Part shown: one piece after another, positions 11,293-63,787 of the stretch
Layout: every line of letters starts with the position of its first letter
How positions within the stretch are numbered: the stretch's first letter is position 1
Virus record (IMG/VR): IMGVR_UViG_3300042992_002627
Direction: 5' to 3' (one strand)
DNA from: an uncultured virus (IMG/VR IMGVR_UViG_3300042992_002627)
Lineage: Duplodnaviria; Heunggongvirae; Uroviricota; Caudoviricetes
Length of the DNA: 64,000 nt
Program-made: the position numbers and the translations under genes
The notes under the pieces: generated by a model
What the model was told of the DNA's origin: nothing
Database searches by the model: none
What the model saw: only the letters and a program-made list of their open reading frames with translations

Positions 11293-12970
11293 TGATTCAA
11301 ATTTGGAAGTGCGATTTGCGAGCAAAGTAAAAATGCTTGTAGATTTGATTGCTCCCAAAGATTTGTATTTAGTTGCCGGCCGTGCCACTGCAAAAACTTC
11401 TGATATTGTGGCGGAACGTTCCAAGGCAATTATTTATGATATGCCCCGGAGTTATCAGTTGTTTGTTTCTGATACCTATCAAAATGCTTTGACTAACGTT
11501 CTTCCGGCACTCATAGAAGGCTGGGAGCGTAAAGGATGGCGGGACGGAATCCACTTTGTGACAGATGAACGACCAAAGTATGGAAAAAACTTTTTAATGC
11601 CTTACAAGCCTCCTTTGAAGTTCAAGCATACTGTTTCAATTTTTAATGGAACGTTTTTCAATTTAGGGAGTTTAGACCAGGCTTCCGGATTAGCCGGTTC
11701 ATCGTACCAACATCGGTATGGTGATGAAGCTCGATTGCTGAAGAAGAAAAAACTGGACCGTTCCTCTCCGGCTTTGCGTGGTGAATTTGCTTCTTTTGGA
11801 CATTCTCCTTACTACATGGGAAATACGTTTACGACTGACATGCCTAATTTGCTGTTGGGTGATGATGATTGGATTTTGAACATGGAAAAGGAAATGGACC
11901 AGGAGCAAATTGAATTGATTTTGTATGCAGCCTATGTTTTGAATGATATCAAGCGGGAAATGATAGCCAATGAACAAATAGGGGTTATTTCTGAACGTGC
12001 CCGATTAGAAAAAGCGTATCGCATTTGGAATGAAGTTTGGATTCGTGCCCGAAAAGATTCAACTTTCTTTTATGCGGTTTCTTCGCTTGTGAATGTGGAT
12101 ATTTTAACGGATGGCTATTTTAAAGCAGTTTTAAAGTCTTTGGGGAACGAAGAATTTAAGTCTGCGATTTTGTCTTTTAAAGTACAGGTTTCTCAAGGAG
12201 AGAAATTTTACTTTGCTTTAGGCGACCATCATTTTTATGACGACGGAGTAAACAATGAATGGTATGATCGATTTAAAATAAAGGATGAAATTTACGGAAG
12301 CAGCGAAGCTCTGCGATATGTTGACACAAATTTAAAGCTTGAGGGCGGAGCGGATTTTGGAGATATGTGTTCGTTAATTTTAGGGCAGTCAAGGGGGAAT
12401 TATATGTATATTCAAAAAGAATTTTACTCGTTGGCTCCTGATAATGAAGTGCAATTAGGAAAGCAATTTGTAGATTTTTTCAGAAACCATAAATACAAAG
12501 TGTTGGATTTGTATTATGATCGTTCGGGAAATCAGAATAAGCAAACCAAACGAGATTGGGCGAGTGCCATTAAAAAAGCGATTGAATATGTGGATGGTTC
12601 TAGCACCGGTTGGGTTGTGAATTTGATGTCGGAATCTCAGGGTACAATTTATCAGGAGCAAGAATATCAATTTGCCGGAAAATTATTGTCGGGAAGTCAT
12701 CCGGAACTTCCAAAAGTTTTAATAGATCGATTTCAATGCAAATGTTTAAAATCGTCTTTAGAACTTACTAAGACAATCATCAAAACTGATAAATTTGGTT
12801 CGAGAACAATTCATAAAAACAAATCGTCGGAAAGTTTACCCTTAAAATCAAGACCAATGTTTTCTACTAACTTTAGTGATGCGTTTAAATATTTTATTTA
12901 TCGAAGATATCTTGTAGAAAAAGTGAATGCCAATGGCAGCTATATTGGCATGGAACCTGGTGTGGTGTAA
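11264..12970 (+). CDS. terL: Terminase large subunit (phage A)
   Basis: Walker A-like AGRATAKT, Walker B GDEAR, C-terminal GADFG / SDAFKY nuclease motifs; likely ATG at 11264. Confidence 0.75.
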   Translation: MNRRTRVNLDDSNLEVRFASKVKMLVDLIAPKDLYLVAGRATAKTSDIVAERSKAIIYDMPRSYQLFVSDTYQNALTNVLPALIEGWERKGWRDGIHFVTDERPKYGKNFLMPYKPPLKFKHTVSIFNGTFFNLGSLDQASGLAGSSYQHRYGDEARLLKKKKLDRSSPALRGEFASFGHSPYYMGNTFTTDMPNLLLGDDDWILNMEKEMDQEQIELILYAAYVLNDIKREMIANEQIGVISERARLEKAYRIWNEVWIRARKDSTFFYAVSSLVNVDILTDGYFKAVLKSLGNEEFKSAILSFKVQVSQGEKFYFALGDHHFYDDGVNNEWYDRFKIKDEIYGSSEALRYVDTNLKLEGGADFGDMCSLILGQSRGNYMYIQKEFYSLAPDNEVQLGKQFVDFFRNHKYKVLDLYYDRSGNQNKQTKRDWASAIKKAIEYVDGSSTGWVVNLMSESQGTIYQEQEYQFAGKLLSGSHPELPKVLIDRFQCKCLKSSLELTKTIIKTDKFGSRTIHKNKSSESLPLKSRPMFSTNFSDAFKYFIYRRYLVEKVNANGSYIGMEPGVV

Positions 12971-56737: not shown

Positions 56738-57073
56738 ATGTCAACAGCACCAAAAAAACAAAACAGACCTTGGGTTAAAGAAACAAAAGCATTCGAAAGA
56801 CCTGTTGACTTCTCATGGTTCTATAATGACCGTAAGTGGCGTAAGGTTTCAAAGGCTTACCGTGATGCAAATCCTGTTTGTGAATGTGAACAATGCAAAG
56901 CTTCACAAACAGTTAAGCCGGCACAAGTGTGTGACCATGTCAAAGGGTTAAAGTTTCTGTTAGATAACAATATGGATCCGTATAACGCAAATGAATTACA
57001 ATCGATGTCACACGAATGTCATAATAAAAAATCCGGAAAAGAATCCCACCGTTCCGGAAGGGGTATGGGGTAA
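56738..57073 (+). CDS. HNH endonuclease (packaging-associated)
   Basis: FYNDRKWR...CEC..C...DH...CHNKKS; upstream of terS. Confidence 0.8.
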   Translation: MSTAPKKQNRPWVKETKAFERPVDFSWFYNDRKWRKVSKAYRDANPVCECEQCKASQTVKPAQVCDHVKGLKFLLDNNMDPYNANELQSMSHECHNKKSGKESHRSGRGMG

Positions 57074-57170: not shown

Positions 57171-57617
57171 ATGAATGAAATGAAAGTTGTTTCAATTGGA
57201 AAAGGTTCTGACAATTTATTGATTGTTCCGAAGGCTCCTGTTTATTTGAATGATGAAGCTAAAAAACATTACAAAGAAATGGGAAACATTTTAGCAAAAA
57301 ACAACCGAATGAAAGAAATCTTTTTGCCGGCTTTAATTATTTATGCTGAATCTATGGCCCAGTTTGAATTTGCGATTTCTGAAATTAGAAGGAAAAATAA
57401 AGAAAAACAAGGTAGTGGTTATGTGCAAAAATTTGCAACCGGAGCACAAAACATTTCTGTGGAAGTAAGCTTGAAAAAATCTGCCATTGATGATTTATTA
57501 AAATGCTTTAAAATTTTTGGTATGGATCCAAAATCAGAAAAAGAATTAAAAGACATTACCGACCCAAATCAAGGCAACTTGTTTGAAGAAATGTTGAAAA
57601 TGAAAAAGGGCCAATAG
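57171..57617 (+). CDS. terS: Terminase small subunit, P27 family
   Basis: KAPVYLNDEAKKHY...FGMDPKS. Confidence 0.75.
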   Translation: MNEMKVVSIGKGSDNLLIVPKAPVYLNDEAKKHYKEMGNILAKNNRMKEIFLPALIIYAESMAQFEFAISEIRRKNKEKQGSGYVQKFATGAQNISVEVSLKKSAIDDLLKCFKIFGMDPKSEKELKDITDPNQGNLFEEMLKMKKGQ

Positions 57618-57926: not shown

Positions 57927-58067
57927 TTGCCAACGGCATCTACTTTGCGAAGTGGCGGATTTGGAACACCACAGCTTCAATTTAGCACTACCGTTGATTA
58001 GAATTACAAGGGTTAAAATTAGCACTGCACCCGCCATTTTGCAAAGCAAGTGTTAGCAAATCGTTTT
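57927..58067 (-). repeat. attC-like site 1
   Basis: GCCAAC...CTTTGCGAAGTGGCGG (57943-58) / CCGCCATTTTGCAAAG (58031-46)...GTTAGC. Confidence 0.75.
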
Positions 58068-58071
58068 CATT

Positions 58072-58338
58072 ATGTTTACCAATATAAAAATAGAAGAAGT
58101 TTTAATTTTTGCAAAGCAAGGGATTCAAGGATTTACCACTGATGATGGTGATATTGTTGAACCTAAAACAAAAGAGGAAGTGCTAGAAGATATAGAATTG
58201 ATTGATGATTTGTTGTCAATTATGAAATCAAAAATGCTCTTAAATAAGAAAAAAGGGTTAAAAGCCGTAATAGATGGACGATTAGCGTTAGCAGTTGCCC
58301 CCGATTCAGTTAGAATAGGTGGTACGAATCATTTTTAA
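58072..58338 (+). CDS. Cassette 1 hypothetical protein
   Basis: Fills the space between GTTAGCAAA and TTTGCCAAC. Confidence 0.6.
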   Translation: MFTNIKIEEVLIFAKQGIQGFTTDDGDIVEPKTKEEVLEDIELIDDLLSIMKSKMLLNKKKGLKAVIDGRLALAVAPDSVRIGGTNHF

Positions 58339-58408
58339 AATGTTTGCCAACGGTTCTCGGCTATATTTAGGCTGGGATTATGAAAACGAAACTTTAAATT
58401 AAAACAAA

Positions 58409-58738
58409 ATGAAAGTAGAAATTACAAAAATTATGCAAAGTACCGAAATACTAAACGAAATTAAAAATCAATTAGAACAATTAGAGCATAAAGGCTATGA
58501 TAAAAATAGTTTTAAAAGCGGTTACCTTTTAGGATATGCCAAAGCGTTGCAATTGCAACAACCTGATGTTATAAAATCGGTTTGCGGTTCGTTGCCGATT
58601 TCAAAGGTGGTTTTCTTTGAGTTGAAAAAAGGGAAATACCTTGCAAGTAATGGGGTTGAAGTAACAACGGAATTTATACTAAAAAACGAACACGCTATAT
58701 TTCACGATAATGGTTATGTGATTGTCGAAAGGCAATGA
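58409..58738 (+). CDS. Cassette 2 hypothetical protein (reads through a junction)
   Basis: The ORF spans the GTT junction at 58568-58596. Confidence 0.55.
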   Translation: MKVEITKIMQSTEILNEIKNQLEQLEHKGYDKNSFKSGYLLGYAKALQLQQPDVIKSVCGSLPISKVVFFELKKGKYLASNGVEVTTEFILKNEHAIFHDNGYVIVERQ

Positions 58739-58876
58739 CCGCTAACGTTGAGCATATACGAAGGCAGGGCTTTTAAATACCAAAGCTCGGTTACTTCCGA
58801 AAGCTCAATAGAAATACAAAAGTTGAAAGTTTGCACGTCTGCCCTGCTTTTGTATATGCATTGTTGGCAGTAGTGC
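58731..58876 (-). repeat. attC-like site 3
   Basis: GCTAAC...GCATATACGAAGGCAGGGC (58752-70) / GCCCTGCTTTTGTATATGC (58841-59)...GTTGGC. Confidence 0.8.
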
Positions 58877-58906
58877 TTTTTATTTACAAACAAAAATTAA
58901 ACAAAT

Positions 58907-59326
58907 ATGAAAATAGTAAAAATATTATTAGACGATGGAACAAGTAGAGAAGTAGGAGAAATTAAACCTTTATCTCACTTTGAAGAAAAATACCCTGAAA
59001 ATAATAAATGGTATTGGCAAAGGTGTTACGAAAGACAATTCAATAATTTTGAAGATGATATTATTGAATTTCTAAATGAAAGTAATGTTGAAGAATACGC
59101 AAAAGACCACTTAAATTTAGTTGAAGAAGACGATGTGGAAGAAAAAGATATTTCTGATTTTACTGATGCTGAAATTTTAGAAGAAATGAAAGATAGAAAA
59201 TTAAATAAAGGAGGGAATATAATTACTTCTAGTTTTATTGAAAGATTTGAAAACATTGTAAAAGCAGAAAACATTATTTTATTAGACAATTTACTTTCTG
59301 AATTAGAAACTAAACTCAATCTTTAG
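58907..59326 (+). CDS. Cassette 3 acidic hypothetical protein
   Basis: Lies between GTTGGCAGTAGTGC and GCATTACTGCCAAC. Confidence 0.6.
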   Translation: MKIVKILLDDGTSREVGEIKPLSHFEEKYPENNKWYWQRCYERQFNNFEDDIIEFLNESNVEEYAKDHLNLVEEDDVEEKDISDFTDAEILEEMKDRKLNKGGNIITSSFIERFENIVKAENIILLDNLLSELETKLNL

Positions 59327-59337
59327 CGACTCCAACG

Positions 59338-59490
59338 GCATTACTGCCAACGTTCCGCAGCTTGTGGTCAGTTGCGGATTTAAGCACCGAGCCACAAAAA
59401 AATAAACAATAACTTTAAATTTAAAAACAATGAATAAAAATAATTCCAAAGACCCGCAATTGCCACAAACTGCTGTTAGCAAATCGGCTT
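59338..59490 (-). repeat. attC-like site 4
   Basis: GCCAAC...GCAGCTTGTGGTCAGTTGCGG (59357-77) / CCGCAATTGCCACAAACTGC (59454-73)...GTTAGC. Confidence 0.8.
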
Positions 59491-59870
59491 TAAAATTTGA
59501 ATACGGATTTAATTCTGTGAATGGAATTGTAAAAAAGAGGTACTATTTAAGCGAAATACCGTTTATGCACGATAAATGCGATGTTTGGCAAATCTTACCA
59601 GTTGTTTATGTTAGGCAATTTACTGGATTTACAGACAAAAAAGAAGTTGAAATTTATCAAGGCGATATTTGTAAATACCATAAAAATACAAGTAAATGGT
59701 TAGTATCATATCATTTTGAAGTAAGGTTTAGAAATGGTGCTTTTTATGCTTATTGGGAACGTGAAATGATGGGAAAATTAGAGCAACATTGGGATTTACT
59801 TTCTCAAAAAGATATGCGAAATATTAGAGTGGTTTCAGATATTTTTCAATCAGCGCAAACTACGTCATAA
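59430..59870 (+). CDS. Cassette 4 YopX-family protein
   Basis: QFTGFTDKKEVEIYQGDI...V.F..GAF motif. Confidence 0.7.
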   Translation: MNKNNSKDPQLPQTAVSKSALKFEYGFNSVNGIVKKRYYLSEIPFMHDKCDVWQILPVVYVRQFTGFTDKKEVEIYQGDICKYHKNTSKWLVSYHFEVRFRNGAFYAYWEREMMGKLEQHWDLLSQKDMRNIRVVSDIFQSAQTTS

Positions 59871-59935
59871 GCTGTTTGCTAACTACTATATGTAAAAACC
59901 ATTTATAAACCTTAACAAAATAAACACTACACGCC

Positions 59936-60739
59936 ATGAACATCGGAAAGTACCTCGAAATGTATTCCGACGATTTAAAGTTAAAAAACTATTCGTCAAA
60001 CACAATTGAAAATTACAAATCACAAGTGGGATTATTTTTAAAACACTTTGATAAAGTAGCAACCAAGCCATCTGAGATATCAGAAAAACAAATAAAAGAA
60101 TGGTTGCTGATGGCCAACTCAATTAACGGCAGAAAACACAGAATATCTGCCGTGAAATTGTTTTACAAACTAACAGGAAAACAGCCTTTGAAGTTCCGTC
60201 ACATTGAATATCCGCGGTCCGAAAAGAAGTTACCACAAATAATTGACAAAACCTATCTATTGGAATCAATCAATAAAATACAAAACAAAAAACACAAAGC
60301 CATCATTGCTTTGGCATACTCAACCGGAATGCGAGTTTCCGAAGTATGTAATTTGTTGATTGCCGATATCGACAGCAAACGAATGATTATTACCATCCGA
60401 CAATCAAAAGGGAAAAAAGACCGCATTGTGGCATTGTCATCAAAAATACTTGAAATACTTCGCGAGTACTTCAAAGAATACAAGCCAAAAACATTTTTAT
60501 TCAACGGTCAATTTGGTGATCAGTATTCACACACGAGCTGCAACCAAATAGTAAAACAATATTTAGGAAAAGAATTTCACTTTCATCAGCTCCGGCACTC
60601 AAATGCGACAGCACTTTTAGAAGCGGGAACCGATTTGCGAATCATACAAAAACACCTGGGCCACGCGTCTAGTAAAACAACAGAAATCTACACCCACGTC
60701 AGCACCAATTTATTACAATCAATGGCATTACCAATTTAA
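59936..60739 (+). CDS. Integron-integrase-like tyrosine recombinase (short; SAM-like N-domain, no Arm domain)
   Basis: YSxNTxxxY N-terminus; TGMRVSE, KGKKDR, HQLRHSNATALLEAGTDLR and LGH..SKTTEIYTHV, with all catalytic residues present. Confidence 0.85.
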   Translation: MNIGKYLEMYSDDLKLKNYSSNTIENYKSQVGLFLKHFDKVATKPSEISEKQIKEWLLMANSINGRKHRISAVKLFYKLTGKQPLKFRHIEYPRSEKKLPQIIDKTYLLESINKIQNKKHKAIIALAYSTGMRVSEVCNLLIADIDSKRMIITIRQSKGKKDRIVALSSKILEILREYFKEYKPKTFLFNGQFGDQYSHTSCNQIVKQYLGKEFHFHQLRHSNATALLEAGTDLRIIQKHLGHASSKTTEIYTHVSTNLLQSMALPI

Positions 60740-62071: not shown

Positions 62072-63787
62072 ATGCAACCAGCCCAATCCCAACTCGAATC
62101 AATCCCTTTTCAATATGCAGCCGCCGTTCGTTCCGGTGAAATTACTGTTGGAAAAAAAATAAAACTTGCTGTCGAGCGGTTTTATCAATGGATAGAAACC
62201 GCTGAAGCCGATGGTTATCACCTCGATCATGCAACTGGCATGTTTGCAGTTACGTTCTTTGAAAACTTCCTGAACCATACCGAAGGAAAAATGGCGGGAA
62301 AACCGTTTGTGTTGGCACCATTTCAGCAATTTACCATTTACAACGTGTTCGGGTGGAAAGATGCCACCGGCAAACGCCGAATCAAAACCATTTACGACAA
62401 ACGAGCCAAGAAAAACGGAAAAACGGCTGAAATGGCAGGTGTGGCATTATATTGCATGTCGTTTGATGAAGAAATCAAAGCTCAGGTGTTTATTGGGGCC
62501 ACAAAAGAAGAACAGGCACGCCTTTGTTGGAATGCGGCCAAAGATTTCATTGATTCCTTTGTGGCAAACACTCGTTTAAAGCAATTGGGCTTTCGGACCA
62601 TGCAAAACAAGGTGATTTTCGAACCTACCAACAGTTTTCTTCGTCCGTTGGGTGGCGATAGTAAAACCCAGGATGGAATTAACAGCCATTTATCGATAAT
62701 TGATGAATATCACGCTCATGCAACCGATGGCGTGAAAGAAAACCTTGAATCATCAGCAGTTCAACGCTTGCAACCTTTAACTTGGCACATCACAACAGCC
62801 GGAACTAACATTGCATCGGTGTGTAAAAATTATGAAGATTCGGTTATTGAAGTGTTGGAAGGCCGAAAAAAAGACGACCGCCTTTGGATTATGATCCATG
62901 ATTTAGATGAAGATGACGATTGGAACGATGAAAGTAAATGGATAAAAGCCAATCCATTATTAAACCAAGGACTTTCAATCGACAATATTCGCGATGAATA
63001 CCTTAAATGTGTCAATCAACCTTCTAAAATTCCGAATTTCAAAACCAAACATCTAAACATGTGGGTCGATGCTCCAAAAATTTGGATTCCAACCGAAATA
63101 TGGCAAAAAAATAAAATTTCCGAAATACCGTTATCTAAGTTCCAAAAACATGGAAGCTATGCAGCTCTCGATTTGTCAACCACTACAGATTTAACAGCAT
63201 TTGCTATACTTTCCGAACCCGATGAACACGAAAAGCGATATTTAAAAGTATTACTGTTTTGTCCTGAAAAAACAATCGAAAGACGAAGCAAAGAAGACCG
63301 TGTTCCTTACAAATATTGGGCAGATGCAGGTTTTATCATTGCAACACCCGGTGATGTTGTAGATCATGCCGTTGTAGAAGATAGAATTCGCATTGAATAC
63401 CACAAACATGCAGTAAAACGCATCGAAATAGATCGCTATTTGGCAACAAATATCACATCAAATTTACAAGAAGAAGGTTTTGAAGTGGCCTATTTTACAC
63501 AAACAATTACAAATTATTCGTTTCCAACCAAAGAATTTGAACGCCTTGTTTACTTAAATAAAATAATTCACGACGGTAATCCCGTTTTAGAATGGATGCT
63601 TTCCGGGTGTGTGGTGATTTCCGACACAAACGAAAACATCCGAATATCAAAATCACGTTCACACGCAGGAGGTAAGAGAATCGATGGAATAATAGCTTCA
63701 ATCATGGCATTAGGCGGTTCGTTATCACCAAAAGAAGAAAAATCAAAATACGAAAAACCAATGGATGAATCCGAAATCTATATATAA
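62072..63787 (+). CDS. terL: Terminase large subunit (Terminase_1 / HK97-like)
   Basis: KKNGKT Walker A, IIDEYH Walker B, ITTAG, LDLSTTTDLTA and KRIDG motifs. Confidence 0.95.
   Translation: MQPAQSQLESIPFQYAAAVRSGEITVGKKIKLAVERFYQWIETAEADGYHLDHATGMFAVTFFENFLNHTEGKMAGKPFVLAPFQQFTIYNVFGWKDATGKRRIKTIYDKRAKKNGKTAEMAGVALYCMSFDEEIKAQVFIGATKEEQARLCWNAAKDFIDSFVANTRLKQLGFRTMQNKVIFEPTNSFLRPLGGDSKTQDGINSHLSIIDEYHAHATDGVKENLESSAVQRLQPLTWHITTAGTNIASVCKNYEDSVIEVLEGRKKDDRLWIMIHDLDEDDDWNDESKWIKANPLLNQGLSIDNIRDEYLKCVNQPSKIPNFKTKHLNMWVDAPKIWIPTEIWQKNKISEIPLSKFQKHGSYAALDLSTTTDLTAFAILSEPDEHEKRYLKVLLFCPEKTIERRSKEDRVPYKYWADAGFIIATPGDVVDHAVVEDRIRIEYHKHAVKRIEIDRYLATNITSNLQEEGFEVAYFTQTITNYSFPTKEFERLVYLNKIIHDGNPVLEWMLSGCVVISDTNENIRISKSRSHAGGKRIDGIIASIMALGGSLSPKEEKSKYEKPMDESEIYI

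Follow-up and report, generated by a model that had tools for sequence, protein, structure and literature searches.

Why would the two ends of a small gene cassette be complementary to each other when they lie hundreds of bases apart, while the ends that face each other across a junction are not? The question is raised by an array of four cassettes in a 64,000-nt stretch of DNA (hereafter, the window) from an uncultured virus of the Caudoviricetes (IMG/VR record IMGVR_UViG_3300042992_002627). On the + strand, a leftmost GCCAAC is followed by junction hairpin J0, cassette 1, J1, cassette 2, J2, cassette 3, J3, cassette 4, a docking region, and the gene for an Xer-type tyrosine recombinase, with GTT opening and AAC closing all four cassettes (Table 1). 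The original prediction, made from the window alone, held that each cassette's own ends pair over 14-17 nt, that a bulged T in the resulting stem is conserved, and that the pairing is the footprint of units that once existed as circles. Based on the analysis described here, we consider it likely that the two ends of a cassette pair because each supplies one half of an arm, the outer and cleavage-side one, in a folded attC-like site, and that these sites belong to an integron-like cassette array of a freshwater phage.

Pairing of cassette ends in the window and among relatives

All eight end strings quoted in the original prediction match the window letter for letter. Taken by itself, the window provides thin evidence for own-end pairing, with cassettes 3 and 4 alone clearly beating chance. 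When each cassette start was scored against every end position in the 24 kb from 40020 to 64000, the own end was the best partner for cassette 3 (14.5 vs 11.5 at the best unrelated place) and for cassette 4 (12.5 vs 10.5). The own end of cassette 2 (11.0) tied with an unrelated place, and that of cassette 1 (10.0) ranked lower than several chance partners that reached 11.0. When starts were tabulated against ends (4 x 5), the own end was the best partner for cassettes 2, 3, and 4; the first 12 nt of the GTT-side arm are identical in cassettes 1 and 4.

Relatives were decisive for own-end complementarity and confirmed the observation. Loci encoding relatives of the recombinase were drawn from a viral contig collection (80 loci taken from 229) and analyzed together with the window, with cassettes being delimited by junction hairpins and thus independently of the cassette ends. 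A strict motif, GCNAAC..GTTNGC, detected 24 junctions only, positions 5-6 being different at most sites, and was replaced by a scan for hairpins framed by AACG and GTT. The scan looked for a stem between the 36 nt following AACG and the 36 nt preceding GTT, at a distance of 50-450 nt, and found this frame 421 times on the recombinase strand versus 97 times on the other. Retaining non-overlapping hairpins with a dG of -14 or lower left 228 junctions and 159 distinct cassettes between consecutive junctions. The own ends of these cassettes paired with a median score of 13.5, and 114 of the 159 reached a score of at least 10. When ends were shuffled between cassettes, the median dropped to 5 and a score of at least 10 was reached by 95 of 3161 combinations (3%); the possibility that shuffled ends might pair equally well, which would have undermined the prediction, was therefore not borne out. 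The two flanks of a single junction paired just as poorly (median 5, at least 10 in 10 of 228, or 4%), so that pairing is indeed within a cassette and not across the junction. Nearly all of the paired cassettes (112 of 114) lie upstream of the recombinase gene and on its strand, and the distance bridged by their arm halves has a median of 364 nt and a maximum of 1406 nt.

Anatomy of the outer arm and the probable folding strand

Position-by-position statistics were compiled from 87 ungapped stems. Positions 1-3 of the arm are GTT/AAC, and position 4 is mostly A:T and is paired in all 87. Positions 5-10 and 12-14 form Watson-Crick pairs in 92-100% of the stems (28-65% when shuffled), with all four pair types occurring at each of these positions except 10. 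Position 11, on the other hand, is G·T in 86 of the 87, with the G on the GTT side. Beyond this, position 15 is paired in 64% of the stems and position 16 in 13%. These figures describe a helix of defined length, 14-15 bp, with a free sequence and one fixed wobble, and the long outer stem first described for the window is a family trait that covaries and ends sharply at position 15-16. Position 16, the first after the stem, is T·T in 38 of the 87 and pairs less often than shuffled ends do (13% vs 21%); the end of the helix may itself be marked. A few very short, "empty" cassettes (41 nt at L044 5291-5332, 109 nt at L027 2701-2810, and, by eye, about 64 nt at about 3733-3796 of L081, which is phage Freya_10) are little more than two arm halves, and the local hairpin that they form keeps the G·T at pair 11.

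The bulged T, which had been proposed as a conserved recognition determinant, did not survive this comparison. It is present at position 10 in three of the four window cassettes as described (1, 2, and 4, with none in 3), but the window proved to be unrepresentative. Of the 114 well-paired cassettes, 82 are free of bulges and 32 contain one; a T on the GTT side at positions 9-11 accounts for 26 of the 32 bulges and thus for 26 of 114 cassettes (23%). No enrichment of the bulged T near the window's recombinase was found by class of integrase identity (9 of 33 at at least 80%, 6 of 31 at 60-80%, and 11 of 50 below 60%), and it was ruled out as a conserved mark on both counts. The fixed irregularity is instead the G·T wobble at the 11th base pair, a feature absent from the original prediction: it is found in all four window cassettes and in 107 of the 114 well-paired cassettes (all 82 unbulged stems and 25 of the 32 bulged ones), with the bulged T being a minority variant. 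Six of the seven exceptions, all bulged stems, belong to one recurrent arm type in which a T bulge sits exactly at the place of the wobble.

These properties of the arm bear on the idea that the sites recombine as ordinary duplex DNA and that the complementary ends are a by-product, for instance of the same duplex word being bound at both ends. Most tyrosine recombinases, including the Xer proteins, act on duplex sites, and the window's recombinase is Xer-like. However, positions 5-10 and 12-14 tolerate nearly any sequence provided that complementarity between the ends is kept, which is the mark of pairing and not of a word read by a protein. Moreover, the ends are never exact inverted copies because position 11 always places a G opposite a T, and no local palindromic core was seen at either end on reading the sequence. 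We therefore regard recombination of plain duplex sites as very unlikely.

Junctions have a median length of 118 nt, with 142 of the 228 falling between 110 and 129 nt. The AAC is followed by four unpaired bases, usually beginning with GT or GG, then by an inner stem with a median of 19 bp. Zero or one unpaired base precedes the GTT, and the base before it is T in 198 of 228 cases. Combined with the arm measurements, this gives a folded site in which a 15-bp arm is separated by a small asymmetric bubble, located at the crossover, from a 19-bp arm that ends in a loop. Which strand folds was assessed using 294 hairpins detected by Watson-Crick pairs only, a procedure that favors neither strand. 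Read on the sense strand, the 1x1 mismatches in their inner stems comprised 202 G·T or T·G, 62 C·A or A·C, and 144 others. The sense strand also folded better in 187 of 214 hairpins, although the detection used in that case was biased towards the sense strand. The wobble bias and the invariant pair at position 11 point to the gene-sense strand as the one under selection to fold, be it as DNA or as RNA.

The same bias on the transcribed strand (202 vs 62) could be taken to mean that the stems act in a polycistronic mRNA, in processing, stability, or control of translation, the G·T being a G·U. It would also fit with such a role that the longest open reading frame (ORF) begins within the hairpin in 44 of 149 units, including ORF2 and ORF4 of the window. 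No Rfam family was matched, however, apart from a chance-level hit to a plant microRNA model (E 0.35) that is far below the gathering score. An RNA element alone would also leave unexplained that whole units are gained or lost exactly at AAC in metagenome contigs and cultured phages (see below), and the arrays adjoin a tyrosine recombinase gene and a conserved docking site. An exclusive function in mRNA therefore seems improbable to us, although the stems may have a second role in RNA beside recombination.

The mobile unit and the crossover point

Contigs of four lake-water metagenome runs were compared with the window between 56900 and 60900. A contig from run X13 skips 605 nt, passing from 58743 to 59349, which removes exactly J2 plus cassette 3 and leaves the letters AACGTT shared at the joint. 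Similarly, a contig from run X4 skips 532 nt (59348 to 59881), exactly J3 plus cassette 4, with AAC shared, which brings cassette 3 onto the docking site. The base before AAC is kept by the left cassette at both joints. Two other joints (58885 to 59338 and 59433 to 59879) had sides of 24 nt and were too short to interpret. Loose ends of contigs displayed further variants: a different cassette ends before the AAC of J0 in three runs; in X4, another hairpin follows cassette 2, and a hairpin takes the place of the docking site after a piece resembling cassette 4; and in X7, another cassette adjoins the docking site. A comparable variant found in culture supports these joints independently. Polaribacter phages Freya_10 and Freya_9, whose recombinase is 34% identical to that of the window, are identical over 3793 nt and then differ by a 307-nt hairpin-plus-cassette segment (L081 3794-4100, compared with L083) that begins after ..CCAAC, ends in ..GCTAAC, and adjoins the docking site. 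The two are isolates of one phage species from one host; Freya genomes are 44.0 to 48.9 kb in length (PMC8776804).

The flanks of similar hairpins were compared as well. Among 23 pairs of hairpins with at least 90% identity, the upstream flank was different in all 23, whereas the downstream flank was the same in two and intermediate in six. The AAC joints, the Freya unit, this flank linkage, and the ORF starts within hairpins therefore identify the mobile unit as a junction hairpin plus the cassette downstream of it, with the crossover in AAC. Units do behave as discrete mobile pieces, as the 605-nt, 532-nt, and 307-nt variants bounded by AAC demonstrate, but the unit first proposed, from GTT to AAC alone, has to be corrected to include the hairpin. 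As in integrons, discrete units are thus exchanged by crossover at AAC/GTT, here resolved to the AAC triplet and not to the exact bond. A partition into cassettes plus the hairpin that follows them gives continuous stems for cassettes 2 and 3 too, but was ruled out by the AAC joints and the downstream-flank linkage. The mismatch at position 4 of some window arms was likewise considered as a footprint of the crossover and ruled out, since the crossover lies 3' of the position-4 base in both joints. With the crossover at AAC and the unit comprising a hairpin and its downstream cassette, both arm halves travel with one cassette. Therefore, each cassette's own ends are complementary and neighboring ends across a junction are unpaired.

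Whether the pairing is also a footprint of circles is a separate matter. The existence of discrete mobile units agrees with the original prediction, but the same stem could also close over the cassette body in a linear single strand, and the pairing would then not be a footprint of circles alone. When the last 20 nt of each cassette, the upstream hairpin, and the first 20 nt were folded as they would be joined in a circle, cassettes 1, 3, and 4 gave one continuous stem each, that of cassette 1 being formed with J0. Cassette 2 joined to the upstream J1 gave none, J1 being long and weak in its inner stem. A variant of our favored explanation is that the stem closes over the cassette body in linear single-stranded DNA, for example during replication, and unites the two AAC points for excision. 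The base pairs would be the same in both topologies, and the cassettes of 41, 109, and about 64 nt mentioned above are plain local hairpins. Furthermore, arms across a junction pair poorly (median score 5), such that a hairpin within the array would otherwise be left without a good outer arm. On the other hand, pairing has to span a median of 364 nt and as much as 1406 nt, at an entropic cost, and we view closure over linear DNA as possible but doubtful.

The polarity of the units speaks to yet another explanation, that the end pairs are inverted repeats of segments flipped by the recombinase as in a shufflon or an invertible promoter. An inverted repeat does flank each cassette, and a tyrosine recombinase gene is adjacent. 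However, the longest ORF lies on the recombinase strand in 149 of 153 units, and all six cassette bodies shared between loci have the same orientation relative to the recombinase (none of six the opposite). In addition, the variants observed are insertions and deletions at AAC with no strand-changing joint among the lake contig joints, and the sequence of the repeat varies freely between cassettes served by one enzyme. Inversion is accordingly the explanation to which we give hardly any credence. One shared cassette is terminal in L027 and internal in L023. In the other locus, three of the six shared bodies (L030 11099-11670, L023 9567-10264, and L004 12514-12791) lie past the recombinase gene, several kb downstream of it, which suggests further arrays away from the recombinase.

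The features of the window are collected in Table 1. The array and the recombinase gene are placed between terS and terL, the genes for the small and large terminase subunits, in phage DNA with a G+C content of about 32-38%. Four small ORFs lie on the + strand within the array. The fourth alone has a Pfam match (YopX), and the third has a weak PHROGs match of unknown function (E 4e-4). Sequence before 57932 differs in contigs of three of the four lake metagenome runs. J1, which contains the start of ORF2 (58409-58738), is unusual in other ways. It includes a perfect 14-nt GTT..AAC palindrome at 58546-58559, followed by another AAC. Contigs of all four lake runs diverge after 58563 as loose ends, and a depth peak covers 58374-58641; the first half of the ORF therefore looks like a commoner element that is joined to different downstream sequence in other phages. 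A scan of the whole window returned one further hairpin candidate (11498-11696, dG -14.1), which is weak and was taken as chance. Directly upstream of terS, an ORF of 111 aa (56738-57073) is rich in Cys and His and by eye resembles an HNH-type nuclease.

Table 1. Coordinates of the cassette array, its outer arms, and neighboring genes in the window.
Feature	Position	Strand	Remarks
Small terminase subunit gene terS	57171-57617		Pfam Terminase_4
Leftmost GCCAAC, array start, half-site	57929..57934	+	Upstream flank pairs with no cassette start (scores 5.5-9.0 vs the four GTT-side arms)
Junction hairpin J0, inner stem of attC-like site of cassette 1	57935..58051	+	117 nt; duplex scan dG -17.6
Cassette 1	58052..58351	+	ORF 58072-58338, 88 aa, no family
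Outer arm of cassette 1	58052-58067 with 58337-58351		T58061 bulged; wobble G58063·T58341; 15 pairs, counting the A·C mismatch at position 4
Junction J1	58352..58579	+	228 nt; atypical, weak inner stem; missed by hairpin scan
Cassette 2	58580..58746	+	167 nt; C-terminal 52 codons of ORF 58409-58738
Outer arm of cassette 2	58580-58596 with 58731-58746		T58589 bulged; wobble G58591·T58736; position 4 mismatched (T·T)
Junction hairpin J2	58747..58862	+	116 nt; goes with cassette 3; dG -20.6
Cassette 3	58863..59351	+	ORF 58907-59326, 139 aa
Outer arm of cassette 3	58863-58876 with 59338-59351		14 pairs; no bulge; wobble G58873·T59341
Junction hairpin J3	59352..59474	+	123 nt; goes with cassette 4; dG -19.8; ATG (59430) of YopX-like ORF inside
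Cassette 4	59475..59883	+	ORF 59430-59870 (ORF4), 146 aa, YopX domain
Outer arm of cassette 4	59475-59490 with 59869-59883		T59484 bulged; wobble G59486·T59873
attI-like docking site	59884..59935	+	52 nt; between last AAC and recombinase gene; starts TACTATATGTAAA
Xer-type tyrosine recombinase	59936..60739	+	267 aa; Pfam Phage_integrase, E 4e-40
Large terminase-like ORF	62072-63787

The recombinase, its docking site, and known systems

The best NCBIfam models for the recombinase are XerA (184 bits vs a cut-off of 220), XerC (162 vs 335), and XerD (158 vs 330), all of them below cut-off. The integron-integrase model TIGR02249 matched with 134 bits vs a cut-off of 265, and in two stretches. Among solved structures, an archaeal XerC-like protein and XerA come closest, with 4a8e matched at E 2e-31. 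In a phmmer alignment with IntI4 (2a3v), recombinase residues 12-180 correspond to IntI4 11-182 and residues 212-257 to IntI4 262-307, leaving IntI4 183-261 without a counterpart in the 267-aa protein. The IntI-type extra segment (helix alpha-I2 together with strands beta-4,5) is thus not found in the recombinase. In the part of the structural literature cited here, the residues of VchIntIA that contact the two extrahelical bases of attC fall within 209-241 (K209, Y210, W219, P232, H240, and H241; PMC3053210). Because these positions lie inside the unaligned IntI4 183-261, the contact stretch is missing from the window's recombinase.

For the docking site, the 130 nt that precede the recombinase gene were aligned by eye in loci with that much upstream sequence (79 matched). 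Most of these stretches have the word TACTATATGTAAA directly after the last AAC and about 50 nt before the gene. About 12 nt beyond it lies a second word, TGTAAAC-like, an arrangement reminiscent of the direct repeats in attI sites. Different cassettes adjoin the docking site in different contigs (X4 and X7) and in the Freya phages. Judging from the sequences, it is an attI-like site next to the integrase gene, at which new cassettes would dock.

From these observations, the following picture can be proposed. On the + strand, a site consists of a 5' arm half ending in YAAC, about four unpaired bases (a G, next a G or T, and two others), a looped hairpin with a stem of about 19 bp (about 118 nt in total), zero or one unpaired base, and the GTT that opens the 3' arm half. 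The gene-sense strand would fold, and its outer arm and inner stem would be bound by the Xer-type recombinase in the manner of a core site with two arms. The enzyme would then cut the sense strand at AAC and carry out exchange with the docking site by its own gene or with another AAC site. In classical attC sites, extrahelical bases select the strand and the form of the substrate. Here, the outer arm would be the cleavage-side binding arm and the wobble would take over that selection: it becomes a C·A mismatch on the other strand and is absent from duplex DNA, so it could mark both the substrate strand and the folded form. The T bulge is presumably an optional extra.

Several points weigh against this proposal. 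The own-end score is below 10 in 45 of the 159 cassettes, which may reflect missed or false junctions, and pairing the start of cassette 1 to the cassette 4 end yields 11.5, more than the 10.0 obtained with its own end. J1 is without a good inner stem, and cassette 2 and J1 together give no continuous stem. The 605-nt and 532-nt joints were each seen in one contig, and the linkage of a hairpin to its downstream cassette comes from few pairs (23, with the downstream flank the same in two). The G·T bias of the sense strand is equally expected from RNA structure, and that the arm and the wobble act in recognition is a step that we infer from sequence patterns. Position 4 is mismatched in cassettes 1 (58055/58348, A·C) and 2 (58583/58743, T·T), as opposed to being paired in all 87 stems of the relatives.

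The phage array resembles classical integrons, such as class 1 integrons and the chromosomal integron of Vibrio cholerae (VchIntIA-VCR, 2a3v), in several respects. Both have an array of mostly one-gene cassettes by a tyrosine recombinase gene and a docking site, with sites that have ..YAAC and GTTR.. at the borders of an imperfect hairpin, of which one strand folds better. The crossover is at the AAC/GTT triplet in both, and the outer box beyond it belongs to the neighboring cassette. The 7-bp core sites of classical cassettes are complementary owing to the position of the crossover. Seen as the reverse complement, the phage recombinase gene is divergent from its array and the folding strand is geometrically the "bottom" strand of integrons. 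The sizes are also comparable, the phage junctions having a median of 118 nt and classical attC sites being given as 57-141 bp in the passages cited (PMC3053210). Unlike in classical integrons, however, the genes of the phage array are on the folding strand, the hairpin is upstream of the gene, and the replicon is a phage. The outer arm is 14-15 bp in length, compared with the 7-bp classical core RYYYAAC/GTTRRRY as described in those same passages (PMC3053210), and the irregularities differ as well: four bases after AAC are unpaired, and instead of extrahelical bases between the R and L boxes there is the fixed G·T wobble, which lies at pair 11 and hence beyond the triplet. The phage recombinase has 267 aa and is without the IntI insertion. 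By its sequence, then, the array appears to work like an integron but lacks the defining feature of the protein, and we therefore do not class it as an integron sensu stricto.

The recombinase is also not readily placed among the Xer systems (XerC/D, XerA, XerH, and the pdif modules of Acinetobacter plasmids), with which it shares an XerA- or XerC-like sequence and a compact, two-domain build. Xer sites are short duplexes with 11-bp arms around a 6-8 bp center, whereas the phage arm halves are hundreds of bases apart and form no local palindrome; none resembling dif was seen at the cassette ends on reading the window sequence. With neither a score above a curated cut-off nor a dif-type site, the enzyme was not assigned to the Xer family.

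Sites of the attC type have been described in phage genomes before. In the portion cited here, Qi et al. 2023 (PMC9892861) report that IntegronFinder detects canonical integron parts in phages, including Polaribacter phage P12002L, and that such sites were assayed with IntI1 in folded, single-stranded form. That work used canonical IntI/attC models and the bacterial IntI1, and the same portion describes neither an Xer-type recombinase encoded by a phage together with a docking site of its own, nor long arms specific to each cassette, nor a fixed wobble. For the phages Freya and Ingeline, the part of Bartlau et al. (PMC8776804) cited here mentions the integrases only as signs of a temperate lifestyle. 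A literature search, with subscription journals outside its coverage, returned no description of a phage integron-like system with an Xer-type recombinase and wobble-marked arms.

These results raise a broader proposition, which in our estimation could go either way: a plain Xer-type recombinase without the IntI insertion would run complete integron-style gene capture in phages by reading a structural code of its own, a cassette-specific 15-bp arm with an obligatory G·T at pair 11 and, sometimes, a T bulge as reinforcement, from which it would recognize folded DNA and the strand to be cut. Integrons are the textbook case of a recombinase acting on folded single-stranded DNA, an ability attributed to an insertion found only in IntI. 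In the arrays described here, an integron-like architecture is served by a simpler enzyme, and the structural mark is another one and very clean, with hundreds of natural sequence variants from which it can be read. They offer a testable answer to how strand and form might be chosen, namely by one wobble pair at a fixed distance from the cut. Cultured members (the Polaribacter phages Freya, which serve as a cultured model, and Cellulophaga phage Ingeline) allow this to be studied at the bench. The arrays also show that phages maintain an exchangeable store of small accessory genes of their own. If the proposition is true, recombination of folded single strands would be older and more widespread than integrons, or would have arisen twice.

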